The notes beneath the pieces were generated by a model that was not told the DNA's origin, did not search any database, and worked only from the letters and a program-made list of their open reading frames with translations. Both the position numbers and the translations under genes were made by a program. A DNA stretch of 64,000 bases from the NCBI GenBank assembly GCA_905215695.1, contig CAJMQN010000007.1:17938-81937 (forward strand), written 5' to 3'. Within the stretch, counting starts at the first letter, position 1; every line of letters begins with the position of its first letter. Of this stretch, positions 20,433 to 45,466 are shown piece by piece. The DNA comes from an uncultured bacterium (GTDB lineage Bacteria > Bacillota > Clostridia > Christensenellales > HGM11417).

Positions 20433-20465
20433 TGTGAGAGCAAATAAAAAGGAAGGGAGAAAATT

Positions 20466-22330: not shown

Positions 22331-24415
22331 ATGATGAGCAGTGTCGGAAAGAGGGGCTTGCTTGCCGCCTTCGCCTGCCTTTGCGCGGTATGTATGGCAA
22401 TCGGGCTGTGCTTGCCGCCGGCAAAGGCGGCAGAAACCGGCGCGTGGACGGCGGGAAGCGGTTCTTCTCTCGAAGGGAGCATTCTCACGGGAGGAGAGGA
22501 CGGAAGAGCACAGGTTACCTATGCGGGCGCAGATTTTGTAGAGGGCGGACAGCTCTCCTATCAATTTGCCTCGCGCAAAGATTTTTCGGTGGGCTATGAA
22601 GTGAACGCGCTGGACGAAGCCGGATTCCCCAAGGACAACGCGCGGATCTACGACCACAGTTATGTGAAGTTTACGGTTCTCAATGAGAAGAACGAGGGGT
22701 TTGAAGTCAAGTTCTATCATCAGAATCCGGACTACGAAGTCGAACCCAATAAACTCGAAATCAACCTGACCTGGCTGTCCCCCGCCATCGCTGCGGACGC
22801 GGCGCAATCCAAGGAGACGGGGCGGCACTATGTGGAGACCGTTTATTCGTTTGTGAACAATTTCGGAGCTCCGCACACCCTTTCGTGCTATCGGTATGCG
22901 GGCGCGTATCGCATTTCCGTGGACGGCACGACTTTCATGCCCGTACCCGAATACGGAGAGTTTGATCTGTCAAATGTTTCCGTGACCGTTGACTTTATGG
23001 CGGTGGATAAGAGAGTGCGCGCCGAGCTTGGCGCCGGAACGGATTTTGACCCTTCGCACGCGGGCGTGTGGAGCACGATGGGAGACAGCGTCATCACGGA
23101 GAACGAGGACGGCACGACAACCTTTTCGGTCGAGGATGCGACGGAAAAAATGCCGGTGTCAACGCCGATCGTTCAGCTCCGCGAAAAAATTATCTCTACC
23201 GAAGGGCTGGACGTGAGAAAACCCATCGTGTTGCAGGTCGCTTATTCGCGTTATACAGGTTTAACCTGGTTCTGGGGTTTGGGTCTCGCCAAACAGCCGT
23301 ACGACACCTACAAGTTGCAGTTTGAGGATTTCGGAAGAGGAGAGAACGAGACAAACACCTACCGCAACAACGGATTTGTCGCGGACGGCAAGGGACTGTT
23401 TATTCAGCCGGAGACGGGAAAGATTGAAAATACGACGATTCCGGGCGGTACGGACCTCGTTTCCTACCGTACCAACGACTTCATGGGCGCGGGATATACC
23501 GGACTCGAATGTCTCGATACCGTTCGATACGAAATCGGGGAGACCGACACCGATATTTGGTACAACGGCGAAAAGATTTTTGATCACTTCGCCATGAAAC
23601 AGAGCGACTTTGCCTCGAGCGATTACAGAGCGTATCCCGGATTTGCTTTTCTGGAACTGCCCTCGGCGGTCAACCAAAGCCGTTCCAATACGCTCACAAT
23701 CAAGGGCGCAAACGCCCCCTATCGGGAGGAGACGAGCGGTATCCGTTACAGTGAGAGCGCGGAGGGGTGCAAGATTGACATAGACTGCTTCGGCGAATCC
23801 CCCGCGTTGTCCTATGACGCGGCGGGTACCGAAACCGTTTCCGCAGAGAACTATTCTTACGACGACGGCTCCAAGGAGCTCACGCTGAAACCCGCATTTT
23901 TCACGGATTTCGGCAGCGCACCCCGCCATGTGTTCGTTTCGACCAAAAATGGTACTGCGCGGTTGCAGGTTCGATTTGTTCCGGAAGGGGAGGTCATAGA
24001 AGCCGCCGAGGTTTTGGACAAAGAATTGCGTTTCGAGCTCGGCAAAAAGCGGGACTTTACCTTCAAAATCGACTGCAAGGGGCAGACCTTCTCCCGCGTT
24101 TTTGGGCTGGGTCTCTTCTTGAGGGACGTCGAGTTTGACGAAAGTACGGGTACCGTTTCGATAAACGCCCGTGCTCTCAACGACTTGGACGTCGGCGAAT
24201 ATGTGATCAACATCGAAACGATTGATTTGGACGGCAATTATCTCGTGACGACCGTTCCCTTCTATGTGGACAAAAACCCGTACGAGGGAATGCAATCAAA
24301 CGGCTCTGCGTCCGGAGAGACGAAAGCGGGCTGCGGAAAATCTTCGGCGTCTGCGGGCGGTTTGGCTGCCCTTGTGGCAATTCTCGCCGCTGTCGGCGTG
24401 ATTCGTAAATATTAA
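22331..24415 (+). CDS. Large secreted protein with a GCGK-type C-terminal anchor/sorting tail (694 aa)
   Basis: Signal peptide ending AKA-AE. C-terminus GCGKSSASAGGLAALVAILAAVGVIRKY (24329-24415). The body is unrecognised. Confidence 0.75.
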   Translation: MMSSVGKRGLLAAFACLCAVCMAIGLCLPPAKAAETGAWTAGSGSSLEGSILTGGEDGRAQVTYAGADFVEGGQLSYQFASRKDFSVGYEVNALDEAGFPKDNARIYDHSYVKFTVLNEKNEGFEVKFYHQNPDYEVEPNKLEINLTWLSPAIAADAAQSKETGRHYVETVYSFVNNFGAPHTLSCYRYAGAYRISVDGTTFMPVPEYGEFDLSNVSVTVDFMAVDKRVRAELGAGTDFDPSHAGVWSTMGDSVITENEDGTTTFSVEDATEKMPVSTPIVQLREKIISTEGLDVRKPIVLQVAYSRYTGLTWFWGLGLAKQPYDTYKLQFEDFGRGENETNTYRNNGFVADGKGLFIQPETGKIENTTIPGGTDLVSYRTNDFMGAGYTGLECLDTVRYEIGETDTDIWYNGEKIFDHFAMKQSDFASSDYRAYPGFAFLELPSAVNQSRSNTLTIKGANAPYREETSGIRYSESAEGCKIDIDCFGESPALSYDAAGTETVSAENYSYDDGSKELTLKPAFFTDFGSAPRHVFVSTKNGTARLQVRFVPEGEVIEAAEVLDKELRFELGKKRDFTFKIDCKGQTFSRVFGLGLFLRDVEFDESTGTVSINARALNDLDVGEYVINIETIDLDGNYLVTTVPFYVDKNPYEGMQSNGSASGETKAGCGKSSASAGGLAALVAILAAVGVIRKY

Positions 24416-24432
24416 AGGAGAGGTAAGGGAAA

Positions 24433-27108
24433 ATGAAGACGAGAACAAAATGGTTGTATTCTCTGTGCTGTGCCCTCATAGCGAGTCTGCTCGCGCTGTT
24501 TTTGGTGTGCGTTGTGCCCCTTCAGAGGGCACACGCGGAGACCGAAGAAAAAGTTGCGGCGTTCGACCCGAACATTGCGGGGCATTTAAGTATCACATAT
24601 GGGTGGGCAAACGTAGAAGTCAGACTGATATTTGCCCACCCCGTTGCGGAAGGAAGCAGCTACAACAATTTTTTACAGCCCATTTCATGGCATACGGGCG
24701 CGGGCGCAAAGCCTGCCGAGTGGGTGGAAAAGGTGCAGTCTGACGGGTCGTATGCAAGCGCGATGGACGAAATTCTCTTCGACGGAAAGTCTGTCCGCTA
24801 TCATCTCGAACACACGACGATGGCGGGCGGAATCAACCCCGTTGACGCGACCTTTGTGGACAAGACGGTTCTTTTTATGATTGACAAAGGTCATTGCCCT
24901 CAAACGACTTCGCACACGATAACGTTTACCAAAGATTACGTCTTTCCCACCGGATATTCGTTTGCGAATGACACGACGATTCTTGTGCCCGCAGGGGGCG
25001 GCGATCTTGCAACGGTTGTCAACACAGGCGTTGACGTAACGCTTTCGAGTATCTCGAAGGTCACGGAGGACGGGGAGTATTATGCCTTCGACGCGGCATT
25101 CAGCAACGCGCTCAATCTCATAGCGGCGCAGGATGTGACGGAGGCGCTCGCCGACAAGGTTTCGATCGGGAACAAGACGGTAGCGGAACTCAATGCAACT
25201 GCGGCGGGGAACGTACAGATCACCGCGGAGGGCACGACCCTTTCCTTCCGGGTGAAAAAGAGTGCGATAGACGCGCTCAAACTGACTTTTTCGGCGGGAA
25301 TCGAGTTCCCTTGCGGCAACAGACTGGCGGAGGGCGTTTCCAAAAGCTATTCCTTCGGGTCGAACTACTGGGTAGGACAGGAGTACGCCAAGGTGGAAAA
25401 AGTTGCGCCCATCGCGTTCAAGACCGACGAAGCCACGCACCTGACAATCTATACTAACGGCGCCAACGTCAATATCATGTTGCAGTTCGCTCACCCGGTG
25501 GTGGGAGAGGCAAATCCCGATAAGTACAATAACTTCCTTCAGCCGATGAGTTGGCATACGGGCGCGGGGGCGAAACCTTCCGAGTGGGTTGACCGAGTGC
25601 TTACCGACGGAACATACGATTCGGTCATGGATAAGATTCTCTTCAACGGTCAGCCTGTCCGCTATCATCTCGAACACACGACGATGGCGAACGGAATCAA
25701 CCCCGTTGACGCAAATTTTGTGGGTTCGGCAATCGGATTTATGATCAATACGCCCTACTACGGTCAAGGCGCGCATACGCTCGTTCTCAAAGAGGGACTC
25801 ATTCTCCCCAGCGGCTATTATGTCGAGGAAGACATCGTCATTCTGTGTACGGCGGGAGCCAACCTCGTGTTGAATCAGACGAGTTCCCTTTCTCTTGCCG
25901 AGACAGGCAAAGGCATCGCGTTTGCGGAAGCCTCAAAAATCACGGAAGAGGGCGATTGGTATTCCTTCGACGTATCTTTCAGCAACGTGCTCTTTATGGG
26001 CATGGGGCATAACGTGACGGAAACGGAGGTTTTGAGTCAAATCAAAATTGCCGGCAAGACAGCCGCCGAACTCGGCGCGGACGTTGAACTCTCTGCCTCC
26101 TATGCGACGCTCTCCGTGCGGATCAAAAAGACTGTCTTTGACAGCAATATGCGTATTTCCTTTTCGGCGGGGATTCCCTTCCCGAGCGGTAACACGCTGT
26201 CAAGCGCGGCGAACCGAACATATTTGAAAGATAAGGGCATTTGGTTTGCCGCGGTAGAGGATATTGAAGTTTCCGGACTCGAGGACGGCGGAATGAAGAT
26301 GTCCTACGGGGAGACCCGGGATGTCGTCGCGTCCGCATTGCCCCAAGACGCCGCCGTCAAAAAACTGAGCTATTCCTCCTCGGACGAGTCCATCGTCGAA
26401 ATTCTTTCCAACGGAAGAATGACGGCGGTCGGCGTCGGCACCGTCACAATCACCGTCGCTTCGGTGGGAAATCCGGAGGTGAAAGTCTGTTTCCCGGTGG
26501 TCGTCACCAAGATTCCGCTGACGAATATCGTGCTCGGACAGACTGCAAGCACGCGCCGGATCGGCGTAAATTTTGACATCGTCGTCAACTACCAACCCGC
26601 GAATGTCTCCGTAAAGGGCGTGACGTTCGAGTCCTCGAATCAGGCTGTCGCGGTTGTAGATGCAAATGGAAAAGTCACCACGGTCGGACCGGGCACCTGC
26701 ACGATCACAGTCACCTATACGGACGATCCCTCCAAGACCGCGACCTACACGCTTACCGTCGTGAAGAGCGTGGCGAGTCTGGAAATCACCGAGCCGACGA
26801 AAGTCAGCTATGAGAGCGGCGAGTCCTTCGACGCGGCAGGACTCAAAGTCACCGCCGTGTATGACGACGGAAGCAAAAAGGAACTTTCCGCATCCGAATA
26901 CACTGTTACGGGCTACTCGGCTTCTACACTCGGGGAGCAAATCATAACCGTCAGCTATGAGGGCGTGACCGGCGAGTTTGTGGTAGAGGTAAAGCCGGCG
27001 ACCGAAAAACCCGAAGAGAAGAAGGGATGCGGAAAATCCGCGGACGGAGCAATGGCAGCTATCCTCGCACTGGGCGTGGCATTGTTAACGAAAATGAAAT
27101 TGGTTTGA
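24433..27108 (+). CDS. Large secreted protein with Ig-like domains and a GCGK-type C-terminal tail (891 aa)
   Basis: Signal peptide ending AHA-ET. Two Big_2-like domains (SSSDESIVEILSNGRMTAVGVGTVTITV; FESSNQAVAVVDANGKVTTVGPGTCTITV) and one Big_3-like domain (YESGESFDAAGLKVTAVYDDGSKKEL...VSYEGVTGEFVVEV). C-terminus GCGKSADGAMAAILALGVALLTKMKLV (27025-27108). Confidence 0.8.
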   Translation: MKTRTKWLYSLCCALIASLLALFLVCVVPLQRAHAETEEKVAAFDPNIAGHLSITYGWANVEVRLIFAHPVAEGSSYNNFLQPISWHTGAGAKPAEWVEKVQSDGSYASAMDEILFDGKSVRYHLEHTTMAGGINPVDATFVDKTVLFMIDKGHCPQTTSHTITFTKDYVFPTGYSFANDTTILVPAGGGDLATVVNTGVDVTLSSISKVTEDGEYYAFDAAFSNALNLIAAQDVTEALADKVSIGNKTVAELNATAAGNVQITAEGTTLSFRVKKSAIDALKLTFSAGIEFPCGNRLAEGVSKSYSFGSNYWVGQEYAKVEKVAPIAFKTDEATHLTIYTNGANVNIMLQFAHPVVGEANPDKYNNFLQPMSWHTGAGAKPSEWVDRVLTDGTYDSVMDKILFNGQPVRYHLEHTTMANGINPVDANFVGSAIGFMINTPYYGQGAHTLVLKEGLILPSGYYVEEDIVILCTAGANLVLNQTSSLSLAETGKGIAFAEASKITEEGDWYSFDVSFSNVLFMGMGHNVTETEVLSQIKIAGKTAAELGADVELSASYATLSVRIKKTVFDSNMRISFSAGIPFPSGNTLSSAANRTYLKDKGIWFAAVEDIEVSGLEDGGMKMSYGETRDVVASALPQDAAVKKLSYSSSDESIVEILSNGRMTAVGVGTVTITVASVGNPEVKVCFPVVVTKIPLTNIVLGQTASTRRIGVNFDIVVNYQPANVSVKGVTFESSNQAVAVVDANGKVTTVGPGTCTITVTYTDDPSKTATYTLTVVKSVASLEITEPTKVSYESGESFDAAGLKVTAVYDDGSKKELSASEYTVTGYSASTLGEQIITVSYEGVTGEFVVEVKPATEKPEEKKGCGKSADGAMAAILALGVALLTKMKLV
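24562..26251 (+). repeat. Intragenic tandem duplication (two units of about 280 aa) in the 891-aa protein
   Basis: Unit 1 spans roughly 24562-25377 and unit 2 roughly 25417-26251. Shared strings include NNFLQP(I/M)SWHTGAGAKP(A/S)EWV and RYHLEHTTMA.GINPVDA.FV. A 58-nt block at 24791-24848 matches 25655-25712 with only 2 mismatches. Confidence 0.85.
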
Positions 27109-27144
27109 GGATAGAGGAAAGCCTCACCGACAAAGGAGAGCAAC

Positions 27145-28656
27145 ATGAAAATTTCTTACAGGGAACTCAAAGACAAGATTTTGGGCTGCTGGTGGGGCAA
27201 GACGGCAGGGGGTACGATCGGAGCGCCGTTCGAATGCTATCGCGGGTGCAGGGACCTTGACTTTTATGTGCAGGACGACCCCAGCGGCGTGCCCAACGAC
27301 GACCTCGATTTGCAGCTGATGGTTCTCCGCGCGGTGGAAAAGTACGGAAATCGTATCGACGCGCACATTCTCGCCGAATATTGGCTGACCTACGTCTCCA
27401 CAAGCATGGCAGAGTACGGCGCGGGCAAGAACAATTTGCGGCATCAGCTCCCGCCCCCGCTCTCGGGTTCGTTCAACAACGTGAACAGGAACAGCTGCGG
27501 TGCGTTCATTCGCAGCGAGATGTGGGCGTGTCTGTGCCCGGGGAATCCCGACCTTGCCGTTCGCTATGCCATGGAGGACGCGATGATAGACCATGGCGAA
27601 GAGGGCGTCTATGGGGAGGTGTTCTGCGCCGCCGTCGAATCGCAGGCGTTTGTGGAGAGCGATATCCGCAAACTCCTCGAAAAGGGGCTTGGCTTTATCC
27701 CGGAGGACAGCGGAATGGCGCGGGGCGTGCGCTGTGTCATCGACGCTTACGACAGCGGGTTGACGTGGAAAGAGGCTCGCAAAGTCGTATTGAAGACAGT
27801 GCCGGGCAGTTTCGGCATGTTGTGCGGCACATACCCGGGCGAGGCTCCCGAACCGGATATTCCGCCTGCCGAGCACGGCTATGACGCGCCGAGCAACGTC
27901 GCTTTGGGCGTCTTGGGACTCCTGTACGGAGAAAAAGATTTCGGCAGAACGCTCTGTCTGTCGGCAGGCTGTATGGAGGACGCCGACTGCACGGCGGGCT
28001 TTGCCGCGGCGGCGCTTGGAATCATCCTCGGTCACGAGAATCTGCCAAAAAAATGGATTGACCCCCTCGGACACAAAATCGTTACCTGGTGTCTGCGTAT
28101 CGACAGCGACCTCTTCGTGCCGCAGACGGTGGAGGAACTGTCCGCGCGTGTGCTGCGCCTGATTCCCGCCTTTCTCGGTGAAGAGATTGTCCATTACGGT
28201 GCGGAGGGGTTTGAAGTCGAAATCGTGAGTGCCTATACGCTCTTCCGTCATCCCGGCATGAGGCAGATTGGGGAAGGGGATTTCCCAAAAGTACTTGCGC
28301 GCGTACCCGATACTGTTCGGTATCGGGGTGTGCCCTTTGATACCTATGTACAGTACGAAAACGGTCCGACGGCGGCGGCAAATTCCCGCAAAAAACTGAA
28401 ATTCTGCTTTTATAACAACATGCGCGAACAACAGTCGTTGGAGATGAAGTGGCATGTGCCGGAGGGCGTAACGATTTCGCCCGCGTCGTGCTGGGTGTCG
28501 CTGGATCAGGCGCATGGCGGCTATCCGGTGGCGGAGAGGGAAGTTGTCTTGGAGTTCGGGGAACTCTCGAGCGCAAAACTCGATCTGTCCGTTGAGGTCA
28601 TCACCAACGGTCGCTACACCAAAACCTTTATCCCGATTGTTTTGCTTGTCGAGTAA
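27145..28656 (+). CDS. ADP-ribosylglycohydrolase-family protein
   Basis: N-terminal ILGCWWGKTAGGTIGAPFE and NDDLDLQLMVLRAVE resemble ARH/DraG-fold motifs. 503 aa, no signal peptide. Confidence 0.65.
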   Translation: MKISYRELKDKILGCWWGKTAGGTIGAPFECYRGCRDLDFYVQDDPSGVPNDDLDLQLMVLRAVEKYGNRIDAHILAEYWLTYVSTSMAEYGAGKNNLRHQLPPPLSGSFNNVNRNSCGAFIRSEMWACLCPGNPDLAVRYAMEDAMIDHGEEGVYGEVFCAAVESQAFVESDIRKLLEKGLGFIPEDSGMARGVRCVIDAYDSGLTWKEARKVVLKTVPGSFGMLCGTYPGEAPEPDIPPAEHGYDAPSNVALGVLGLLYGEKDFGRTLCLSAGCMEDADCTAGFAAAALGIILGHENLPKKWIDPLGHKIVTWCLRIDSDLFVPQTVEELSARVLRLIPAFLGEEIVHYGAEGFEVEIVSAYTLFRHPGMRQIGEGDFPKVLARVPDTVRYRGVPFDTYVQYENGPTAAANSRKKLKFCFYNNMREQQSLEMKWHVPEGVTISPASCWVSLDQAHGGYPVAEREVVLEFGELSSAKLDLSVEVITNGRYTKTFIPIVLLVE

Positions 28657-28680
28657 CTTTGCGAAGTTACAGTTTTATAT

Positions 28681-28780
28681 TGCTCCCCACCCTATGGGAC
28701 TCGTCCCCTTGTTTAGGCAAAGGGTTGGAGCGGAGTTAAAGAATAGAGACCGAAGGATTTTATTCCTTCGGTCTTTTAAT
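28681..28780 (+). repeat. Repeat copy 2 of the tRNA-3'-end / hairpin / terminator element
   Basis: attgctccccaccctatgggactcgtccccttgtttaggcaaagggttggagcggagttaaagaatagagaccgaaggattttattccttcggtcttttaat aligns with 16038-16143 with a few indels. It includes the terminator agaccgaagga/tccttcggtct (28747-28777). Confidence 0.65.
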
Positions 28781-28809
28781 ATTATAGTGAAAATTGCTGT
28801 CAGTTCCGC

Positions 28810-29685
28810 TTATGGAATACGTTTTGTGAGCCGATATTCGACGGGGCTCAAGAGGCGGTAGCGTTTAAAGACTTTGCTGAAATAGAGCGCGTCTTGAAAC
28901 CCGACCGCTTCGGCAATCTGTTTGACGCTCAAATCCGTCGATTCAAGCAATTCGGTCGCTTTTTTGATTCGCTCATAATTGACATACTCTTTAAAATTTG
29001 TGTTGATATTTTTTTTAAACAGGGTGGAGAAGTAGCAGGGGGAAACAAAGAATCGTCTTGCGATTTCGCCCGCACTGAGCGAAACTTCGAAAAGGTGTTC
29101 GTGGATATAGTCGTAAATCTGTTCAAAGAGTTCTCCGCTCTCATGCATTTGACTTTGCGGCAAACTTTTTTCGGCAATCGTCGCGAAAATTGCGTAAAGG
29201 CAGTGCGTGACCGTAAAGACCTGCGAACGCTTGCTGCCTTTGGCGGCAAGCGCCTCTTTAAAGTAATGCAACGGGCTGGAATCGGGAAACCGAAGAAAGT
29301 ATTGTTCCGGGGAAAAACCCAGCCGATTCAGAATATTTTTTGCGGCGATGCCGTTGAAGTTGATCCAATAATACTCCCAATTTTTTTCTGCAAAGTAGTG
29401 AATATCTTTCTCGGAAGGAAGAATAAATAGAGTATTCCGTGTCATTTCGGTTCTCGTGCCGTCGAATTCGATGGAGCCTTTTCCCCGTTTGACAAAGTGC
29501 AGAAGGTAATACGGATATTTATTCGGGAACACTTTTTTTTCGCTGTGGTGCTCATAACCTACGTCGATGGGGAAGAGGTCTTTGGAAATCGTACTATTGA
29601 TGTGAAAAAAGTCCAGATTGCCCTTCTGTACTTTTTCATAGCTCTCCCTGTTGTTGCGCAGAATGATTTTTTCGTCGTTTTTCAT
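28810..29685 (-). CDS. AraC-family transcriptional regulator (locus 2)
   Basis: C-terminal double HTH (IARRFFVSPCYFSTLFKK...VGFQDALYFSKVFKRYRLLSPVEY). The ATG at 29685 is chosen because a consensus promoter sits immediately upstream. Confidence 0.85.
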   Translation of the reverse strand: MKNDEKIILRNNRESYEKVQKGNLDFFHINSTISKDLFPIDVGYEHHSEKKVFPNKYPYYLLHFVKRGKGSIEFDGTRTEMTRNTLFILPSEKDIHYFAEKNWEYYWINFNGIAAKNILNRLGFSPEQYFLRFPDSSPLHYFKEALAAKGSKRSQVFTVTHCLYAIFATIAEKSLPQSQMHESGELFEQIYDYIHEHLFEVSLSAGEIARRFFVSPCYFSTLFKKNINTNFKEYVNYERIKKATELLESTDLSVKQIAEAVGFQDALYFSKVFKRYRLLSPVEYRLTKRIP

Positions 29686-29691
29686 GAGATA

Positions 29692-29720
29692 ATTATAGAT
29701 GAGAAGAGAAGTTTTGTCAA
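29692..29720 (-). promoter_or_regulatory. Consensus promoter giving a leaderless AraC (locus 2) mRNA
   Basis: On the minus strand: TTGACA (29720-29715), 17-nt spacer, TATAAT (29697-29692), then 6 nt before the ATG at 29685. There is no Shine-Dalgarno sequence. Confidence 0.6.
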
Positions 29721-29841
29721 CGGAAACCAAAATTATTCCATAACGTGTGAAAGTTTTTCCATTGTATTTTGTTTCGGCTACCGCTATAATGAACACGTAA
29801 CATGAAGATGGTGAAATGACAACAAGGAAGGTTGGACAAAA

Positions 29842-31128
29842 ATGGAAAAATTAAAAACAGTTTTGGTGGGATGCGGGGACAGATCTTGCGTATATGCGGA
29901 AGAGGGCGTCCGCAATCTCGGTCTCATGGAAATTGTTGCGGCGGTTGACCCGGACGAAGTGCGCCTCGCCTACGTACAGGAACGTTTCGGCGTAAAACCG
30001 GAGATGTGCTTTCGCTCCCAAAATCCCTTGCTCGAAAAGGGACGAATCGGGGATTGCGTCATCAACGGCACTATGGATCAGCTTCATATGGAGACGGCGG
30101 TCCCCTTTTTGAAACAGGGCTATCATATGCTTCTGGAAAAACCCATCGTAAATAACCGCAAAGACCTTCTCGAACTCTACCGCATATCGAGGGAAAACGG
30201 CTGTAAACTCATGACCTGTCACGTCCTGCGCTATGCTCCGTTCTATCGCAAAATCAAGGAGTTGATTCTCCAAGGCGAACTCGGCGAAATCGTAAACATA
30301 CGGACAGATGAACGTGTGGGCGTTTTTCACTCTTCCGTATCCTTTATTCGGGGGAAATGGAACAGGGAGTCGGAGTGCGGTTCCTCCCTTCTGCTTGCCA
30401 AATGCTGTCACGACATTGATTTGCTTTGCTGGCTCAACGACGCGTCGAAGCCGAAGGAAGTGTACAGTCAGGGCGGCAGAAATTTTATTGTATCGGAAAA
30501 GGCGCCGAAGGGCGCGGGAACGCGCTGTCTTGTCGATTGTCCCGAAGAAGTGCGCAAAAAGTGTATTTACGACGTACAGTCCATGTATCTTGACAACTGT
30601 ATGCTTCCTTGGTATCCTTGGCAGTGCACGGGAAAAAATTGGCAGGACGTCACCATGGAAGAAAAGGTCGATTCTCTCAAGACCTACAATCCGCACGGCG
30701 TATGCGCGTATAAGGCGGGGGGAGACCTTGTTGACCATCAGAATGTGTCGGTAAAGTTTGAAAACGGCAGCACGGCAATCCACTCGTTGATTTTGGGATG
30801 TATGAAGGCGGGACGGAGCATCTTTATCAGCGGAACGCTGGGCGAAATCGAAGGCAACGTGGAAGACGGTATCTTTTATCTCCGCAAATACGACAAGAAG
30901 ACTTCGACCTATCTTGAGGAGAGCTACAATTTCAACGACACCAAGGGAGAGACGGGGGGGCATTTCGGCGGCGACCGCGGATTGGTTTCGGACTTCTGCG
31001 GCATTCTGCTCGGGCAACAGCCGTCGGTGTCTTACACATCGATCGAAAATTCGGTCACAGGGCATCTGTTGGTCTATGCGGCGGACGAGTCGCTGAAAGA
31101 GGATAAGACGATTTCAATGGAGGTATGA
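29842..31128 (+). CDS. Gfo/Idh/MocA-family NAD(P)-dependent oxidoreductase
   Basis: N-terminal Rossmann motif LKTVLVGCGDRSCVYA...EIVAAVDPD, 428 aa. Confidence 0.8.
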   Translation: MEKLKTVLVGCGDRSCVYAEEGVRNLGLMEIVAAVDPDEVRLAYVQERFGVKPEMCFRSQNPLLEKGRIGDCVINGTMDQLHMETAVPFLKQGYHMLLEKPIVNNRKDLLELYRISRENGCKLMTCHVLRYAPFYRKIKELILQGELGEIVNIRTDERVGVFHSSVSFIRGKWNRESECGSSLLLAKCCHDIDLLCWLNDASKPKEVYSQGGRNFIVSEKAPKGAGTRCLVDCPEEVRKKCIYDVQSMYLDNCMLPWYPWQCTGKNWQDVTMEEKVDSLKTYNPHGVCAYKAGGDLVDHQNVSVKFENGSTAIHSLILGCMKAGRSIFISGTLGEIEGNVEDGIFYLRKYDKKTSTYLEESYNFNDTKGETGGHFGGDRGLVSDFCGILLGQQPSVSYTSIENSVTGHLLVYAADESLKEDKTISMEV

Positions 31129-31130
31129 AT

Positions 31131-32486: not shown

Positions 32487-32495
32487 GAGGACGAC

Positions 32496-34892
32496 ATGAA
32501 GAAAAAAATATTCCGAAAGATTCTGTGCGCCGCGGGCGCGTTGGCAATCGGCGTCTGTTCCCTGTCGGGCTGCGGCGGCACGCCCGCGGCTTATGCGGGC
32601 GACGTCGTGCACTATTCCGCATCGGACGCGGGGCTTGCAAATTTTTTAAACGATTTTACCCGCCGCAATCTGCGGTTTGACGAGGAAAGCGTCGGAGATT
32701 CGTCCATGGGACTCGGGAGCGGCACGGGCTTTGCGAAGAATTGGGAAACCATGTCCCTCGTCTGGCACAATTCCACGGGAAATGTGCTCGGCGAAAACAA
32801 ACTGGAACGAATCGAGCAGTTCCTGCGCACCATCACGCAGGACGGTCAGGGCATGATCTACAACACCCACAACAACCTGATGGGCGGGCGTTCGCAGGCG
32901 GGGGACGGAATCTCGCAGGGGTGGCCCTTCCCGACGCACGGGAACAGCGGCGGACGGAACACGGCTTTTGAATTCAATTACGAGAGCGAAGCGAAAAATT
33001 GGAAGGCGAGTACCGGCGGAACGTTTACGGTGGGCACGGACGGATACGGAAGATTCACCTACAGCGCACCCTCTACCGGGAGCGCGTTCCGTTTGGTCAA
33101 CGAGAACGTGACGACCCCGAATGCGGGAGGGATCGACACGAAACACGCGCCGATTGTGGAGATCGAGCTGTCCTATGTGGACGCAAATCACGCCATCGGG
33201 TCGGGGACGGACGTCGCGGACGTCTCGCTGATTTTTCAGACGGAGGCGGGCGGCGATGAATGGTTCAAAGCCCCTCAAAGCCTGTATGCGACGACTCCTG
33301 TGGATTTGAGCTATGCTTTGTCCGAACGCATGTATTTCTCCATGTATCTCAACGAAGATTGGGAGGGACAGATCGTCACCGCGCTCGGGGTAGAAATCAC
33401 CCCCAAGGAAGGGAAAAAACTCAAACTGACGGACGGCAAGATCAACTATATCCGCCCCAATTACGACACGAGACAGTCCAACGCCACCTATCAGTTCCTG
33501 CTTGCGCTGGGGAATTACGTCGCCTACACGAACGACAACGCGTTTCTCGAAGAAATGCTGCCGAAGGCGCGGGGCGCGATTCTGTTTCTGACGCACGCGC
33601 TCGAGGGGGAGAGCGGACTTCTGGACATCTCCTATCTGTACGGACACAACGGAATCGGTTCTTCGTCCGAGGACGGCAAGATCGTCCGAAACGTCGGGGA
33701 CGGCATCGGAAACGGCTATTGGGATATTCTGACCGCGCCCGAAAAGAACGTGGAAGCGAACACCTACTTCTATCAGGCTCTCGGGGTCATGGCGTCCCTT
33801 GAGCGTCGGGCAGAATCCGCAGGAATCGAAACCGCAGGAACTTCGGTCAAGAACCGCATGCCCGGCGAACCCGACGTTGCCTACGAATACACCGCGGAGA
33901 GTCTGGAAACGCTGCAAGCGCAGGTCAAGACCAACATGGAAAAAGAGGTTCAGCCGGTGCAGCTCGCGGACGGAAGCTGGGAAAACCGCGGCGGGTTCTG
34001 GAGCGCGGATACAGAGCGTTTTGTGAGCGGAATCCGCAAGGACAGCGGCGATGTGATTGATTACGGATTCGTGTACTGGAATGAGGAGGCGATTGCCGCC
34101 GGAATCGGCACGCAGACGCAGCGCGAAAAAATCATGGCGTGGATCGACGGCGCGCGAAGCGTGGGAACGGACACGAGTCAGGGCGACGACATCTATTTTT
34201 ACGAATTCGCCCCGCGTTTTTCGACCAAGGCAAACACGCTCGACTACGGCTTTTACTATTCCTCGCCGGGATACAGCAAACAGGTACAGGACGGGGGCGC
34301 AGTGATCTGCTGGAGCTACTATGACCTGCTTTCGAGAATCGAAGTGCTCGGCGCGGACAACGCCTTTGACCGCCTGAAGGAAATTCAGACCTGGTACAAC
34401 AAAGTACAGAACGCCGGCGGTACGGGTATGAACTTTTACAACGACTACTATATGTATCTTGAGACGGGTTCGGGAATCTATGTCTTGCAGCAATCCGGCG
34501 CGCAGAACGGCGCAATGGGTTTGGATACCGAATTTTTGGAGAGTATCCTCCTGCATGCGTCCGTTCCCTTCGGATTCTTCGGCATGGACGCAACGCTGAA
34601 CAATACGCTTCGCTTCACGAACCGACTTCCGTCCTCTTTGAATTGGTGGCAGATTGACAACATGCTCTACGGCGGAGTGGGGTACTCGGTGCGAATGGAA
34701 AAGAACGCGCTTTCGATTCTCAACACGAAAGGAACCGTTCCCTCGGACTATCGGCTCGAACTCTGCTTTGCGGAGCCGGAGGGAAATTACTCGGTGAAAG
34801 TGAACGGACAGAAGACGGAGGATTACACGGTATCGGACGGAATCGTCACGGTGCGCGTTCCCTTCGGAGACGTAGAGGTCCGCGTCGGCTGA
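32496..34892 (+). CDS. Large secreted lipoprotein, possible (alpha/alpha)6-type glycosidase (function uncertain)
   Basis: Lipobox CSLSGC, 798 aa. Strings such as EANTYFYQALGVMASLERRAE are reminiscent of six-hairpin glycosidases. This is unverified. Confidence 0.4.
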   Translation: MKKKIFRKILCAAGALAIGVCSLSGCGGTPAAYAGDVVHYSASDAGLANFLNDFTRRNLRFDEESVGDSSMGLGSGTGFAKNWETMSLVWHNSTGNVLGENKLERIEQFLRTITQDGQGMIYNTHNNLMGGRSQAGDGISQGWPFPTHGNSGGRNTAFEFNYESEAKNWKASTGGTFTVGTDGYGRFTYSAPSTGSAFRLVNENVTTPNAGGIDTKHAPIVEIELSYVDANHAIGSGTDVADVSLIFQTEAGGDEWFKAPQSLYATTPVDLSYALSERMYFSMYLNEDWEGQIVTALGVEITPKEGKKLKLTDGKINYIRPNYDTRQSNATYQFLLALGNYVAYTNDNAFLEEMLPKARGAILFLTHALEGESGLLDISYLYGHNGIGSSSEDGKIVRNVGDGIGNGYWDILTAPEKNVEANTYFYQALGVMASLERRAESAGIETAGTSVKNRMPGEPDVAYEYTAESLETLQAQVKTNMEKEVQPVQLADGSWENRGGFWSADTERFVSGIRKDSGDVIDYGFVYWNEEAIAAGIGTQTQREKIMAWIDGARSVGTDTSQGDDIYFYEFAPRFSTKANTLDYGFYYSSPGYSKQVQDGGAVICWSYYDLLSRIEVLGADNAFDRLKEIQTWYNKVQNAGGTGMNFYNDYYMYLETGSGIYVLQQSGAQNGAMGLDTEFLESILLHASVPFGFFGMDATLNNTLRFTNRLPSSLNWWQIDNMLYGGVGYSVRMEKNALSILNTKGTVPSDYRLELCFAEPEGNYSVKVNGQKTEDYTVSDGIVTVRVPFGDVEVRVG

Positions 34893-35072
34893 ATCTGAAA
34901 AAGCACACCTTCGCAAAAAGAAAAAACCCTTGGATTTTTTTGCAAAATCCAAGGCGTTTTGAGAGAAAAACATGAAAAAAACGGATACGGAAAGGTGTAC
35001 CTTTTCGTATCCCGAGCAAAAGAGGCGTTGCCGGGTTTCAAACCCGAATCCAATCAACGCGTCAGAGGGAAT

Positions 35073-36395
35073 ATGAAAATTCTGAAAAAAACCTTATGTC
35101 TGCTGCTTGCGGTCGCGGTATCGGCGGGGTGCGTTCTGCTTGCGGGCTGCGGCAGAAAAAAGGACGATCCAAACACGATCACCATCGGCGTCGCGAACAA
35201 CACGAGCGAGATCAACATCCTCAACACCTTCCGTCAGGCGTACATGAAGGCGAATCCGGGCAAGAATATCGAAATTGTCCGCATTACGGGAAGTTTTGAC
35301 AACGCGCTCGTCAAACTGAACAACTCCAACGACCTGCCCGACATCGTACAGGTTTACGATTTTTCGGCGGAATACTGGACGGAGGCGGGAATCTACTATC
35401 CCATCAGCGATTTCATGGCGCGGGACGGTTTGCAGGAGTCCGACTACTTTGATTCGGTCATTTCTCTCGCCAAGAGCGGAACGGACGGCAAGATGTACTG
35501 GGCGCCCCGCGACTACAACAAAGTCGTCGTCTGCTACAACAAAGAAATCTTCGACGCGGCGGAAGTGCCCTATCCCACGGACGATTGGACGTGGACGAAG
35601 TTTCAGGAGACCTGCGAGGCGCTCGCCGCCAAGAGCAGCGAGATTATGGCGGTCACGGGACAACAGATTTTCTATCCCGTGGACATGAACCTGAACTGGG
35701 AATCGGTCTATTATCCGGCGATCCGTTCCTACGGCGGCGACCTCTTCGACAAGACGGCAGGCACGGCGATTCCGGACGCAACGGTCGTAAAGACCGCGCT
35801 TGACAGTCTTTTGAGCCTTGCCGACGAGGAACTCGCGGTCTCTCCCTCTGAGACGGGGTCGCCCTTCCCGGCGCAGCAGTGCGCGATGCACTTTACCGTC
35901 CGTCCGAATATCGTCTCTTTCGCGAATTCAATCAAGGACGACGCGGGCAACCCCGCAATCGACTTTGCTTCCGTGCCCGCCTTCGAAGGCGTGGAGAAGT
36001 CCTATATCGGCATGGGGTGTACGGGCTATGCGATCACGGATCAGTGCGCTGAGACGAAGAGAGAGGACGCCTGGAATTTTCTGAAATTCGTCATGACCGA
36101 GGCGGGGCAAAATGCGTTTTGCGCGTCCGGCGCGGGCGTGCCCATTCTCAAAGAAATGGCGGAGGACGAAAACGCGGCTTTCCGGCAATACCTTCCGGAC
36201 GCCAATCATGACGCGTTTATACAGTTCACCGACAGGGATCTCCCGATGAACTATATGTCAGGACTCAATCCGAAGAAACACCTTGCGATCCGTTCCGTGC
36301 TGGTCACCGAACTCACCAAGAATTACTTTGCCGCCGCGAACCGTCAGGATTATCTTACCGAGCTGAAGGAAAAACTCGAAAACGCGTTGCGTTAA
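35073..36395 (+). CDS. Carbohydrate ABC transporter substrate-binding lipoprotein (locus 2)
   Basis: MKILKKTLCLLLAVAVSAGCVLLAGC lipobox, followed by a permease pair. Confidence 0.85.
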   Translation: MKILKKTLCLLLAVAVSAGCVLLAGCGRKKDDPNTITIGVANNTSEINILNTFRQAYMKANPGKNIEIVRITGSFDNALVKLNNSNDLPDIVQVYDFSAEYWTEAGIYYPISDFMARDGLQESDYFDSVISLAKSGTDGKMYWAPRDYNKVVVCYNKEIFDAAEVPYPTDDWTWTKFQETCEALAAKSSEIMAVTGQQIFYPVDMNLNWESVYYPAIRSYGGDLFDKTAGTAIPDATVVKTALDSLLSLADEELAVSPSETGSPFPAQQCAMHFTVRPNIVSFANSIKDDAGNPAIDFASVPAFEGVEKSYIGMGCTGYAITDQCAETKREDAWNFLKFVMTEAGQNAFCASGAGVPILKEMAEDENAAFRQYLPDANHDAFIQFTDRDLPMNYMSGLNPKKHLAIRSVLVTELTKNYFAAANRQDYLTELKEKLENALR

Positions 36396-36404
36396 AGGGG
36401 CGCT

Positions 36405-37325
36405 ATGAAGAAACTATCCGCAAAGACCAAAAAAAGCGTACTCACCAATGTGACGGGATACGCATTGATTCTGCCGCTGTTGGTCGGACTGGTCATCTTT
36501 ACGCTGTACCCGCTGCTCGTCTCACTCTTCAACAGCTTTTTTCTCAACTACGACGGATTCAGCGACTACGGCGAATTTGAATTCGGATTCGGAAACTATT
36601 TAAAGGCGTTTACCGGGTACGAGAGCAAAATCTTCTGGAAATCGGTGGGAATCACCTTTTCCTATGCGGCAATCATGGTTCCCTTGGGTCTCGCGCTCTC
36701 CTTTATCGTCGCGCTCTTTCTCAACCAAAAGACGAGGGGAATCGGCGCGTTCCGCCTTCTCTATTACATTCCCTGCCTGATTCCCGCCATCGTGGGGGCG
36801 ATGGTCTATCGCTATATCTTCAACCCGAGCTACGGGCTGATGAACACCATCTTTGCGTCTCTTGGGTTAGAGCCGAGCAAATTTTTCGATTCCCCCGATT
36901 ACCGCGCGGTGCTGACCTACATGTTCATGAGTCTGTTCGGCGTGGGCGGTTCCATGCTGATATGGATTGCCGGATTTAAATCCGTGCCCGCAACCTATTA
37001 CGAGGCATGCCGGATTGAGGGCGGGGGATATTTCTACGGACTGTTCCGAATCACGATTCCGCTCTGTACGCCCTACATTTTTTATCTGTTGATCACCAAT
37101 GTCATTTCCACCCTGCAAATCTGCGGAAACGTCTATATGATTTCATCGACGGGGGGCGTCGGCGACAACCTTCTGTTCTTCGGGCTGTATATCTACCGAA
37201 CCTTTATGAACAACAATTTCGGCTATTCCGCCGCACTCGCGTATCTGCTGTTTGTGGTGATCGGTCTGCTTTCCGCGGTGCTCTTCCGATTCAACAAGTA
37301 CGTGTATTACGAGGGGGAGGACTGA
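36405..37325 (+). CDS. Sugar ABC transporter permease (MalF-like)
   Basis: Polytopic, with EAA-like YEACRIEGGGYFYGLFRITIPL. Confidence 0.88.
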   Translation: MKKLSAKTKKSVLTNVTGYALILPLLVGLVIFTLYPLLVSLFNSFFLNYDGFSDYGEFEFGFGNYLKAFTGYESKIFWKSVGITFSYAAIMVPLGLALSFIVALFLNQKTRGIGAFRLLYYIPCLIPAIVGAMVYRYIFNPSYGLMNTIFASLGLEPSKFFDSPDYRAVLTYMFMSLFGVGGSMLIWIAGFKSVPATYYEACRIEGGGYFYGLFRITIPLCTPYIFYLLITNVISTLQICGNVYMISSTGGVGDNLLFFGLYIYRTFMNNNFGYSAALAYLLFVVIGLLSAVLFRFNKYVYYEGED

Positions 37326-37326
37326 T

Positions 37327-38199
37327 ATGGCGAACGTTACGAGGCGATTGAATCCGAATACGAAAAAGATCCTGCTGAAAGTTCTGTCCTACTTCTTTCT
37401 CGTGCTGTTTTCCTGTTTCTTTCTGTTCCCGCTCGTGGTGATGTTTTTCCGAAGTTTTTTCACAACGACGGAGAGCCTGAAAATCGGCGCGGGACTGTTC
37501 CCGACGGACGGCTGGAATTTCGGGTCCTATGCGCAGGCGCTGGACGCGGAGTTTCTGCGGTATTTCGGGAATACGATTATCGTGATTCTCGCGAACATCG
37601 TCGGACAGCCGCTGACCGCGGCAATGGCGGCATACGCCTTTACCAAAGTGAAATTCCGGGGACGCAAAGTCGTCTTTACGACGGCGATGTGTACGATCAT
37701 GCTCCCGAGTATTCTGACCATGATTCCGGTCTATAAGATTTTTGTGGACATCGGCTGGACGAATACGCTTCTTCCGATCACGGTTCCGGCGTTCTTCGGG
37801 GGCGGGTTTCTGAACATCTTTCTGATCATGCAGTTCATTCGCGGACTTCCCAAGGAGATGGACGAGGCGGCGGTCATCGACGGCGCAAACACATTGCATC
37901 TCATGTTCCGAATCACTTTTCCGCTCATCATGCCGGTGATTGCGCTGGTGGCGGTGCAGTCATTCTTTTTCGTCTGGAACGATTTCATGGGACCGCTCAT
38001 GTACATCACGGATGAGGAACTTCTGACGCTTCCCGTGGGAATTTACAATAAGTTCTTTACGGCGCTGACGCCCGAAGAGTCCATGCCGAACGTGCAGATG
38101 GCGACGGGAATCCTGATCCTGATTCCGCCCATGATAGTGTTTATGATATTCCAAAAACAACTCGTCGAAGGCGTGTCCTTCACGGGATTGAAAGCATAG
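37327..38199 (+). CDS. Sugar ABC transporter permease (MalG-like)
   Basis: EAA loop MDEAAVIDGANTLHLMFRITFPL. Confidence 0.88.
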   Translation: MANVTRRLNPNTKKILLKVLSYFFLVLFSCFFLFPLVVMFFRSFFTTTESLKIGAGLFPTDGWNFGSYAQALDAEFLRYFGNTIIVILANIVGQPLTAAMAAYAFTKVKFRGRKVVFTTAMCTIMLPSILTMIPVYKIFVDIGWTNTLLPITVPAFFGGGFLNIFLIMQFIRGLPKEMDEAAVIDGANTLHLMFRITFPLIMPVIALVAVQSFFFVWNDFMGPLMYITDEELLTLPVGIYNKFFTALTPEESMPNVQMATGILILIPPMIVFMIFQKQLVEGVSFTGLKA

Positions 38200-38221
38200 A
38201 AATTTTAAGGAGGAAAGGAAA

Positions 38222-40165
38222 ATGAGAACGGTAGCAAAGAAATGGGGAATCGGTCTGCTCGCGTTGATCCTGACGGTTTGCGCCTTCGGGTTCGTCGGAA
38301 CGGCGGGATCCGCCCGAGCGGAGGAGAAGACGGATATTACCGGGAAGATTGTCGTTTGGGACGATGCCAACCAGGCGGAGCATGACTATACGGAGATTCG
38401 TCTGCTTTTAAATTCGGGGGCGCTTGATTTTCAAGGTTATATCAATGACGGCGTAGAAACGAAAGTCACTGTGGACCTCTGCGAGTATCTCTATATCGGG
38501 GTCGGCGAGGGCGAGAGCTATGTCGAGCACAAAGTCAGAGATTTGCTGAACGCGAACAACAACGGAGAGACGTCCTATAAAGGCGCGGACTTTCCATTGA
38601 GCATGGGCGGAGAATTTGCTCCTGTTATCGTTCAGTATGCCGGAGGAGATATTGTCATCCGTATCCTGAAGGAGTTTGTACCCTATGGAGAATTTAATCT
38701 GCGGCTGAAAACTGGTTTTGAGGTTGACGTTGCCGAAAAAGCGTGCGTCATCGGCGAGGACATCGTTTACGGTTATGCCAACGGAAACTGGACGCGCAAA
38801 TACGACATCACTTGGGTTGTCGGCGACAGGGAGACCAAAGAAATCCATCCCGCCGGCAGTCTTGTACCTGAGTTTACCGGAAGCACGGACAAGGAAAGTA
38901 CCGTAGATAAAGTTTTCACTTTTACGGGATGGTCTCCTGAACCCGGATCTGTGAACGCGCACGCGACCTATACGGCGCAGTACTCCGAGGCGACGCGGCA
39001 GTACGACGTGACGATAGGCGACGCCGCGCCGGTCAAAGTGGATTACGGTGCGAAACTCCAAAAACCCGAAGATCCGACCAAAGCCCCCACGAACACCGAA
39101 GTTTTCACCTTTGACAAATGGGTAATCGACGGAACGGAAACCGCCTGGAATTTCGAGACGGATACCGTGAAAGGCGACACCGTTTTAAAGGCGGTATTTA
39201 CCTCGGCGGAACGCAAATATTCGGTCACCTTCGACGGAAAAGACGAACAGAAGGTTTCCTATGATTCTACGATAACCAAGCCTTCTTCCGATCCGACCAA
39301 ACCGTCCGACGCGCAGTATGACTACGTCTTCGACGGCTGGTACAACGGCGATACGAAGTGGAATTTTGAAACGGATAAAGTGAGGGCGGATCTTGCGCTG
39401 ACCTCCAAATTTACCGGGACGCTGCGCTCTTACGAGATCACGATTGCGTTTGAAGGAATCGAAAAAGAAAGTGTGACGCTGACCCTCGACTACGGCACGC
39501 AAGTGGATTTCATCCCCTATAAGGTGGCGGGATACGACTTCAAGATTATGAACGGAGAGGAAGAGATCACCTCGCTGACGGTAACCGGCGAAACCTCTTT
39601 AAAACTCGTCTATGCGCCGCGAAAGATTGCGGTTTCCTTCGACGCGAACGGCGGAACGGGCAGTATGGCTGTCATGGAAATTCCCTACGGCGTGGAAACC
39701 GCGCTGACGAAGAATTCTCTGACCCGTACGGGCTACACCTTTGCGGGCTGGGCGACGAGCGCGGCGGGCGAGGTCGTCTATGCGGACGGAGCGAAAGTCA
39801 ATCTGACCTCCGAGGAAGACGTGACGCTGTACGCGGTCTGGACGAAGAACAGCTATCGGGTGACCTATGAGGACGAGAACGGCGAGACGGTGAAAGAGTC
39901 CGCGACGGTCGCGTTCGGCGACTCGGTGGATTTGACCGCGCCGACCGCACCCGAAGGCAGGACCTTTGACGGCTGGTACTATAACGGAGAAAAGGTGACT
40001 TCGCTCACAATGCCGGCGGGTGACGTCGTCCTGGTTGCGAAATTTGCGGACAAAGCGCCGGAAAAGGGCGGCTGCGGCGGTTGCGGCGGAACTTCCTCCG
40101 CGGGAATGGCGGGTCTTTTGACGCTCGGTCTTGCGGCGGCATTTGCAATCAAGTGGAGATTCTGA
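38222..40165 (+). CDS. Secreted protein with Listeria-Bacteroides repeats and a doubled GCG C-terminal tail (647 aa)
   Basis: Signal peptide ending ARA-EE. At least five Flg_new-type repeats (FTFTGWSPEP..., FTFDKWVIDG..., YVFDGWYNGD..., GYTFAGWATSAAGEVVYADGAKVNLTSEEDVTLYAVW, RTFDGWYYNG...). C-terminus GGCGGCGGTSSAGMAGLLTLGLAAAFAIKWRF (40067-40165). Confidence 0.8.
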   Translation: MRTVAKKWGIGLLALILTVCAFGFVGTAGSARAEEKTDITGKIVVWDDANQAEHDYTEIRLLLNSGALDFQGYINDGVETKVTVDLCEYLYIGVGEGESYVEHKVRDLLNANNNGETSYKGADFPLSMGGEFAPVIVQYAGGDIVIRILKEFVPYGEFNLRLKTGFEVDVAEKACVIGEDIVYGYANGNWTRKYDITWVVGDRETKEIHPAGSLVPEFTGSTDKESTVDKVFTFTGWSPEPGSVNAHATYTAQYSEATRQYDVTIGDAAPVKVDYGAKLQKPEDPTKAPTNTEVFTFDKWVIDGTETAWNFETDTVKGDTVLKAVFTSAERKYSVTFDGKDEQKVSYDSTITKPSSDPTKPSDAQYDYVFDGWYNGDTKWNFETDKVRADLALTSKFTGTLRSYEITIAFEGIEKESVTLTLDYGTQVDFIPYKVAGYDFKIMNGEEEITSLTVTGETSLKLVYAPRKIAVSFDANGGTGSMAVMEIPYGVETALTKNSLTRTGYTFAGWATSAAGEVVYADGAKVNLTSEEDVTLYAVWTKNSYRVTYEDENGETVKESATVAFGDSVDLTAPTAPEGRTFDGWYYNGEKVTSLTMPAGDVVLVAKFADKAPEKGGCGGCGGTSSAGMAGLLTLGLAAAFAIKWRF

Positions 40166-40169
40166 TGAA

Positions 40170-45464: not shown

Positions 45465-45466
45465 TT

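Follow-up and report, generated by a model that had tools for sequence, protein, structure and literature searches.

Four secreted proteins with a common C-terminal tail

The window analysed here, a 64-kb stretch of contig CAJMQN010000007.1 from an uncultured bacterium (assembly GCA_905215695.1, positions 17,938–81,937 of the forward strand), carries two sugar-type ABC (ATP-binding cassette) transporter loci in which four large secreted proteins, all encoded on the forward strand and all (4/4) bearing N-terminal signal peptides with AxA sites, end in the same type of C-terminal tail: a short cysteine-containing signature, a run of small residues, a hydrophobic helix and a basic end. Protein 1 (22331–24415; 694 amino acids (aa)) has a type-I signal peptide at residues ~1–33 (AKA|A) and a beta-rich body of unknown family, and protein 2 (24433–27108; 891 aa) has a signal peptide at ~1–35 (AHA|E), an unknown N-terminal region, two Big_2 domains and one Big_3 domain. 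Protein 3 (31125–32486; 453 aa; signal peptide ~1–32, ARA|E) has a body of unknown family, and protein 4 (38222–40165; 647 aa; signal peptide ~1–33, ARA|E) is built of Listeria–Bacteroides repeats (Flg_new ×4, Flg_new_2). No recognizable catalytic domain was found in the tail proteins, proteins 1 and 3 have no match in Pfam or NCBIfam, and proteins 1, 3 and 4 have no sequence match in the PDB; an AlphaFold2 model of protein 1, built from a three-sequence alignment, was poor (predicted local distance difference test score of 40).

The tail of protein 1 (24329–24412) consists of a Gly–Cys pair at 24329–24334 (Cys668, 24332–24334), the spacer GKSSASAG (24335–24358), the hydrophobic core GLAALVAILAAVGVI (24359–24403) and the basic end RKY (24404–24412). 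In protein 2 (tail 27025–27105), Gly–Cys at 27025–27030 is followed by GKSADG (27031–27048), the core AMAAILALGVALLT (27049–27090) and the end KMKLV (27091–27105), and in protein 3 (tail 32406–32483), Gly–Cys at 32406–32411 (Gly428, Cys429) is followed by GKADA (32412–32426), the core TASLVLIPALLAAAFVI (32427–32477) and the end KG (32478–32483). Protein 4 (tail 40070–40162) has the doubled motif GGCGGCGG, with one Gly–Cys at 40070–40075 (Cys618, 40073–40075) and a second at 40079–40084 (Cys621), then the spacer GGTSSAG (40085–40105), the core MAGLLTLGLAAAFAI (40106–40150) and the end KWRF (40151–40162). The complete C-terminal sequences are ...KAGCGKSSASAGGLAALVAILAAVGVIRKY (protein 1), ...KKGCGKSADGAMAAILALGVALLTKMKLV (protein 2), ...SSGCGKADATASLVLIPALLAAAFVIKG (protein 3) and ...GGCGGCGGTSSAGMAGLLTLGLAAAFAIKWRF (protein 4), and all four read G-C-G-[K/G], then 5–8 small residues, a hydrophobic core of 14–17 aa and a basic end. 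In a regular-expression scan of all six-frame open reading frames (ORFs) of the 64 kb, proteins 1–4 were the only plausible genes with this type of tail.

The original prediction, made from the sequence alone, held that four secreted proteins share this tail on otherwise unrelated bodies, and both statements are confirmed: the tails that it quoted are exact, ending at stop codons 24413–24415, 27106–27108, 32484–32486 and 40163–40165, and an all-versus-all BLASTP comparison gave no significant similarity between the bodies. In that comparison the tail was the best-scoring local match for the pairs 1–3, 1–2 and 3–4; the best match of proteins 2 and 4 was a long low-identity alignment passing through the tails, and the pair 1–4 gave no tail match. 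At the DNA level the four tails agree in no more than ~61% of positions per column, and their codons differ; the tails are therefore not a recent DNA repeat, and gene conversion as the origin of the shared tails is ruled out on the same grounds.

A [G/S]-C signature on five unrelated families

Across 17 tails from five unrelated body families (F1–F5), the cysteine is invariant (17/17) and is preceded by Gly in 16 tails and by Ser in one, and the conserved signature is therefore [G/S]-C. The pattern GCG[K/G] that had originally been proposed holds for the four window tails, but not as the conserved signature; likewise, the proposed tripartite layout stands, but its helix of about 16–18 aa is replaced by a measured hydrophobic core of 14–18 aa, rich in Ala and Leu. 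Position +1 relative to the cysteine is G, S or F and position +2 is G, K, S or A. The linker preceding the signature is polar and poorly conserved; positions −3 and −2 are usually polar or charged, with hydrophobic residues in some tails (MVGC, MISC, EIGC, RVGC). Between the cysteine and the helix lie 5–9 small residues (0 in one F5 tail by one helix trimming), several helices contain Pro (LIPALL, ALPIV, VIPAAL), and in right-anchored columns Leu at −9 and Ala at −5 each recur in 10 of 13 tails. The C-terminal end comprises 2–13 residues with a net charge of 0 to +5 and is Lys-rich or mixed (RKY, KMKLV, KG, KWRF, KKSEKR).

The Gly–Cys dipeptide occurs in the mature bodies at a frequency of 0.0005 per position; the probability of finding it within 12 residues before the helix is ~0.007 per tail and ~1e-11 for five unrelated families. 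This last figure precedes the counting of orthologues, and an estimate that adopts the composition of a Gly-rich linker is ~5e-9. In a leave-one-family-out test with profile hidden Markov models (HMMs) against 2,214 six-frame ORFs (296 kb of window and related loci), left-out tails of F1–F4 scored 5.5–16.9 bits, always at the C terminus, and ranked directly below the training tails; the best non-tail ORFs reached no more than 7.2 bits, and only the two lowest left-out tails (5.5 and 8.6 bits) came close to them. We conclude that the tail is a real, selectively maintained and modular C-terminal element with an invariant cysteine.

Conservation in orthologues and distant relatives

As the original prediction required, the motif is kept in orthologues, here at 99, 89, 79 and 68% identity, and in 30%-identity homologues of other Clostridia. 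Protein 1 orthologues with the tail are P0002 (99%) and P0003 (79%, ...TGGCSSTASAAGGLVAVAAIFAAAVAMRKSKKER), the tail of the latter (...SAAGGLVAVAAIF...RKSKK) being located at 8380–8502 of the related locus L004, and a 30%-identity homologue, P0004 (...AMVGCSATMANSYVLATSLLLGAAYIVTLKTRK...), has it as well. The protein 2 orthologues P0008 (98%), P0007 (89%) and P0009 (68%, ...ATGCGGMATASAAAAAAAVLALGAAFIIKKGRR) align through the tail, the protein 3 orthologues P0001 and P0005 retain GGCGK plus the helix, and in the protein 4 orthologue P0006 the tail is identical. Within species, members of 90%-identity clusters retain Gly–Cys, with substitutions only around it.

At larger distances, the cysteine, the helix and the basic end are kept both by F1 homologues at 30% identity (P0004 and those of L002, L003 and L006) and by F2 homologues at 33% identity (L002 and L003), unlike the preceding linker, which is not conserved; the alignment of the F2 homologues to protein 2 extends through the tail. 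Metagenome-assembled genomes (MAGs) named 'Clostridia bacterium', from yak and goat rumen, contain the distant homologues. MAGs in which the loci are found are GCA_964313895.1, the ERZ10407387 bin (NODE_50 and NODE_144), RGIG10265 (JAGCZN01) and RGIG3732 (JAFTDZ01). Two rumen MAG loci each have the tail on three consecutive large proteins (...SGGCGGAAEGN..., ...EIGCFSGIATS..., ...PKGCGGNTGAA...), one of which belongs to a family absent from the window, and a metagenomic homologue at 31% identity bears ...AMISCSANMANS....

The protein 1 family is rare: profile scans found it at two loci in genome contigs, drawn from a GTDB representative set that does not include the species of the window, and at two in metagenome contigs. 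A profile search with the protein 2 family returned three orthologues, the other matches being to Big_2 domains only and without tails; and no database record was found for the exact sequence of protein 3. No tails lay on the contigs carrying P0014, P0011 and P0030, which were either unrelated or of phage type. A tail-only profile run against a word-indexed database of 5.8 billion proteins, the index of which is unable to seed on a 30-aa tail, gave 17 candidates with a single match, a fragment of a protein 3 orthologue.

Comparison with curated sorting signals

When 20 tail sequences were scanned alone against NCBIfam 20.0 (June 2026; E ≤ 10) and four against Pfam, no model was matched consistently at its cut-off, and most tails gave no match at E ≤ 10. 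The nearest curated models by score were MYXO-CTERM and the MYXO-CTERM-anchored families: MYXO-CTERM itself (TIGR03901.2; cut-off 20) gave 15.3 bits for protein 4 (the best window tail), 15.9 bits for P0003 and 13.8 bits for a third tail, with a trace match at 7.7, and several MYXO-CTERM-anchored protein families match the P0003 tail. PGF_CTERM (~12–13 bits versus a cut-off of 24.5) and LPXTG_anchor (TIGR01167; 12.4–13.2 bits versus 15.9) matched over the helix only. The sole match at a cut-off was that of P0003 to GG_III-CTERM (NF041738; 22.0 bits, cut-off 22), and it covers profile positions 5–28, all of them after the cysteine; none of the 19 other tails, including all four of the window, matches this model. 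NF041738, which describes a 'GGIII-like transmembrane region', is an NCBIfam model without a publication. Firmicu-CTERM, Synerg-CTERM, JDVT-CTERM, CGP-CTERM, GlyGly-CTERM and PEP-CTERM gave no match at E ≤ 10, in scans where HMMER filters may have hidden very weak ones, and literature searches turned up neither an account of any Cys-type C-terminal signal in Firmicutes nor a paper about GG_III-CTERM. The tail is thus outside the current curated models, a point on which the original prediction was unsure. Its nearest described relatives are the MYXO-CTERM tails, and it fits best as a new variant, from Clostridia, among the tripartite sorting signals that contain a cysteine, with which it shares a short cysteine signature, a hydrophobic helix and a basic cluster on several unrelated signal-peptide proteins.

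The likeness to MYXO-CTERM (TIGR03901; earlier GC_trans_RRR, TIGR03382; myxosortases MrtX/MrtC/MrtP of the CPBP/Rce1 type) extends to most features of the tail. Both are tripartite and stand at the extreme C terminus of Sec-exported proteins, both have Gly–Cys with an invariant cysteine (17/17 tails here), at times doubled (GCGC there, GGCGGCGG in protein 4), and in both there follow several small residues, a helix rich in Ala and Leu, and a basic terminus; both also occur on many unrelated passengers, with no adjacent enzyme gene. However, scores here do not exceed 15.9 bits against the cut-off of 20, and the MYXO-CTERM helix is free of charged and Pro residues and ends in an Arg-rich cluster, whereas here some helices contain Pro and the end is Lys-rich or mixed. 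MYXO-CTERM is furthermore curated as restricted to Myxococcota and Bradymonadales with a myxosortase (NF040914 core) plus a type II secretion system (T2SS), whereas the host here belongs to a sporulating Clostridia lineage in which a T2SS and an outer membrane are probably absent.

Other Cys-type signals are more remote. Synerg-CTERM, JDVT-CTERM and CGP-CTERM (associated with MrtS, MrtJ and MrtA) likewise have an invariant cysteine at the start of the helix that, together with a basic end, closes the protein, and a two-step route of lipidation and then CPBP cleavage is predicted for them; however, the cysteine of Synerg-CTERM adjoins the helix without the 5–9-aa spacer seen here, JDVT-CTERM has a DP motif and a single dedicated adjacent target, and CGP-CTERM has an invariant C-G-P. 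For GG_III-CTERM, the likeness is limited to the one orthologue tail described above. The LPXTG/sortase system resembles the tails in overall architecture, in its passengers (Big_2/Big_3 and Listeria–Bacteroides repeat surface proteins) and in operating in Firmicutes cells, but the tails have no LPXTG-like pentapeptide, and their cysteine implies thiol chemistry rather than Thr-Gly transpeptidation. We rejected the tail proteins as sortase substrates on the absence of any LPXTG-type motif and of a TLxTC sortase motif in any plausible ORF of the window.

Setting of the tail proteins

Each of the two loci comprises a lipoprotein solute-binding protein and two ABC permeases besides the tail proteins. 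In locus 1 (17301–22319, forward strand), the binding protein (17301–18656; FVGC) is followed by permeases at 18661–19557 and 19554–20432 and by a 617-aa lipoprotein of unknown family (20466–22319; AAGC|GE). Between the loci (27145–31128) lie an ADP-ribosylglycohydrolase-family protein (27145–28656, forward), an AraC regulator (28810–29796, reverse) and a GFO/IDH/MocA oxidoreductase (29842–31128, forward). In locus 2 (32496–38199, forward strand), a 798-aa lipoprotein (32496–34892; LSGC|GG) precedes the binding protein (34959–36395; LAGC|GR) and permeases at 36405–37325 and 37327–38199. Downstream, on the same strand, a lipoprotein with fn3 and Y_phosphatase3 domains is listed at 40131–41300 (ATAC|GE) with a TTG start that overlaps the protein 4 tail by 35 nucleotides; its real start is probably an internal ATG (MKGRKIMRRV...), with the lipobox LATAC|GE.

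The other exported proteins of the loci have N-terminal lipoboxes (AAGC, LSGC, LAGC, FVGC and ATAC), in agreement with the original prediction. In the window (17301–41300) and in the related loci L002 and L003, each exported protein has one of the two, lipobox or tail, and none has both or lacks both, so that every extracellular component of the uptake loci would be tethered once. The two elements also resemble each other: the G-C-G/S core of the tail signature (AGCGK, KGCGK, SGCGK, GGCGG) is similar to the lipoboxes AAGC|GE, LSGC|GG and LAGC|GR, with G/S at −1, cysteine and then G/S, and in both the cysteine would lie at the outer membrane face beside a helix. However, the topology of the tail is inverted, in that the motif is C-terminal, with a polar linker before the cysteine and the helix after it, and the tails do not fit the lipobox pattern proper ([LVI][ASTVI][GAS]C directly after an N-terminal h-region); only the −1/+1/+2 core is common to both.

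A proposed sorting route and its alternatives

We suggest, with a probability of roughly 0.55, that the tail is a processed signal, a modular domain at the C terminus that tethers the protein to the membrane and sorts it; probably it is the Gram-positive equivalent of the myxobacterial cysteine-type surface-sorting signals. Its recurrence on unrelated bodies, deep conservation, cross-family HMM signal, complementarity with lipoboxes, likeness to the lipobox core and proximity to MYXO-CTERM all point in this direction, and the computable tests all favour the original notion of a candidate sorting or anchoring signal closest to MYXO-CTERM. As can be read from the sequence, the N-terminal signal peptide directs Sec export and is removed by signal peptidase I, and the hydrophobic core and the basic end, with its positive charge inside, act as a stop-transfer signal that places the folded ectodomain on the outer face of the cytoplasmic membrane, beside the lipoprotein binding protein and the permeases; membrane tethering of the ectodomain on the outer membrane face is accordingly what the tail sequence itself predicts.

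The later steps can be envisioned by analogy with the published two-step model for MYXO-CTERM, in which an Lgt-like lipidation of the invariant cysteine of GCGC, with Lgt itself as the leading candidate, is followed by cleavage by MrtX (PMC11980579; 10.1101/2023.06.07.544157). Following that model, the invariant cysteine, lying 5–9 small residues outside the helix, may be modified at its thiol, most likely by an Lgt-like lipid transfer, and the helix may then be cut off by a housekeeping enzyme whose gene lies elsewhere, an intramembrane protease that is most likely of the CPBP/Rce1 type; this would leave the protein held by a C-terminal lipid-modified cysteine. More tentatively, and at somewhat less than even odds, we propose that C-terminal sorting of the Cys (MYXO-CTERM-like) type may be seen here for the first time in a monoderm Firmicute: 'reverse lipoproteins' of gut and rumen Clostridia, lipidated on a C-terminal cysteine by Lgt or an Lgt-like enzyme and clipped by a lineage-specific intramembrane protease, that would serve as glycan-capturing proteins beside ABC importers in cells without a T2SS or an outer membrane.

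Several points weigh against a processed signal. A membrane helix alone tethers a protein, so processing is not logically required, and both the cysteine modification and the helix cleavage are taken over from the MYXO-CTERM analogy. No CPBP, sortase, rhomboid or exosortase gene was found in the window, as had originally been noted, or in 13 related loci (L001–L014; 10 kb either side of the looked-up gene), and an extension past the start of the window reached only genes of the oriC region (dnaA, recF, gidA/B, trmE), with no protease. MrtX is, however, a housekeeping CPBP protease that is never encoded beside its substrates, nor would a housekeeping sorting enzyme be expected beside the proteins that it processes (10.1101/2023.06.07.544157). 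Each of the four Cys-type signals known comes from a diderm bacterium or an archaeon, and those of bacteria depend on a T2SS (PMC11980579), a system that monoderms do not have. In our own data, the F5 tails (GCF) were not recovered in the leave-one-family-out cross-validation, and a tail HMM (7 tails, 31 positions) searched against 1.84 billion representatives gave four matches at E ≤ 1e-3, all of them orthologues of window proteins. The tail is accordingly documented only in a few lineages of gut and rumen Clostridia, its HMM being too short to reach significance across a whole library.

Among the alternatives, the serious rival is a plain but sequence-constrained anchor, that is, an unprocessed type-I membrane protein that retains its helix and in which Gly–Cys has another role, for example in reversible S-acylation, in contact with metal or haem, in joining a partner through the thiol or in packing onto the transporter. 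We consider this less likely than processing. A helix with a basic end does suffice for anchoring, no processing enzyme lies near any locus, and Cys-less C-terminal helices occur on other Firmicutes proteins that were retrieved (for example, P0023); but an invariant cysteine with Gly or Ser at −1 and a fixed distance to the helix, kept on five unrelated families and down to 30% identity, is typical of signatures recognized by an enzyme, and the cores are short (14–18 aa) and Ala/Gly-rich, resembling cleaved sorting signals. A further point against the plain anchor is that disulfides are improbable outside strict anaerobes. The likeness between tail and lipobox would also allow a release switch, in which [G/S]-C is read as a lipobox in inverted form by Lgt and Lsp-like enzymes, which cut before the cysteine and shed the ectodomain from a small lipopeptide stub. 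The residues at −1 (G/S) and +1 (mostly G/S) are those of the lipoboxes of this organism, and some tails have the hydrophobic −3/−2 residues noted above; yet no h-region precedes the cysteine, the topology is inverted relative to Lsp substrates, the tail would be unnecessary for mere secretion, and the strict alternation of lipobox and tail favours tethering, which together make such a switch improbable.

Two further explanations are both very improbable. The tails could simply belong to a curated sorting domain (MYXO-CTERM, GG_III-CTERM, PGF-CTERM or LPXTG), their low scores being due to shortness alone, as the sub-threshold matches and the single GG_III-CTERM match at cut-off might suggest; however, most tails match nothing, the matches obtained lie mainly over the helix, the GG_III-CTERM alignment begins only after the cysteine, the LPXTG and PGF motifs are absent, and MYXO-CTERM is curated for Myxococcota and Bradymonadales only, with its Arg-rich end. 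Least probable of all is that Gly/Ala-rich linkers in a genome of 55% G+C produced the pattern by chance or through their composition: the linkers and helices are of low complexity, but the probabilities calculated above, even with a Gly-rich linker, the differing codons and the retention of the tail at 30% identity effectively refute it. With these alternatives weighed, a processed, MYXO-CTERM-like tethering and sorting signal remains the reading that we favour.

The usual routes of surface display in Gram-positive gut bacteria are sortase/LPXTG, N-terminal lipoproteins, SLH or cell-wall-binding domains and plain helices. If our reading is true, a conserved Cys-bearing C-terminal signal would be a further route, the myxosortase paradigm (cysteine lipidation and then CPBP cleavage) would extend from diderms and archaea to monoderm Clostridia, and a function would be found for part of the large set of orphan CPBP/Abi proteases in Firmicutes. 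The likeness between the tail and the lipobox core offers a simple, T2SS-free system for asking whether Lgt is the long-sought lipidating enzyme of this class. An HMM of the tail would better annotate the surface proteins of uncultured gut and rumen Clostridia, and would mark proteins of unknown fold in Gram-positive polysaccharide-utilization loci as cell-surface components.

Host and genomic surroundings

The window also carries SpoIIE, TilS, DnaN and the S10 ribosomal operon, its uL2 is nearest to that of Firmicutes ribosomes in the PDB, and the nearest public copies are in human-gut assemblies; the host is therefore an endospore-forming Clostridia bacterium of the gut, most likely a monoderm. 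Enzymes in or around the tail loci comprise the ADP-ribosylglycohydrolase-family protein (27145–28656), GH109-like GFO/IDH/MocA oxidoreductases, a SASA sialate O-acetylesterase and a GH20 enzyme (outside the window at L002 3210–4424 and 19963–20823 and L008 14266–15681), and this set hints at host or mucin-type glycans as the substrates of the loci. The region of locus 2 from the AraC regulator to the phosphatase-like lipoprotein (28810–41300), with proteins 3 and 4, is missing from a relative at 89% identity and is thus an accessory island; in that relative, a GH20 hexosaminidase gene (L008 14266–15681) stands in its place.

Directly after a MatE gene, a phage-tail-like cluster occupies 42645–53400 (for example, 43379–43945, 45467–46864 and 47229–49352) and includes an ECF-type (extracytoplasmic function) sigma factor, a Gly/Ala-rich tape-measure-like protein (45467–46864) and a 707-aa protein without a Pfam match. 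The cluster is found at the same place in the 89%-identity relative (L008 17773–22664, with a Phage_tail_2 match), and the G+C content of the window falls to 0.42 at 48–52 kb; it could be a prophage remnant or an element of the tailocin or gene transfer agent type. At the other end, the window starts within ~1 kb of dnaA, near oriC. Here, dnaN (1421–2671, reverse strand) is convergent with dnaA rather than co-directional (window 456–2671; L012–L014 5969–9576), and a BspA-type LRR_5 lipoprotein gene (456–1394) lies between dnaN and dnaA in some strains and is absent in L012.

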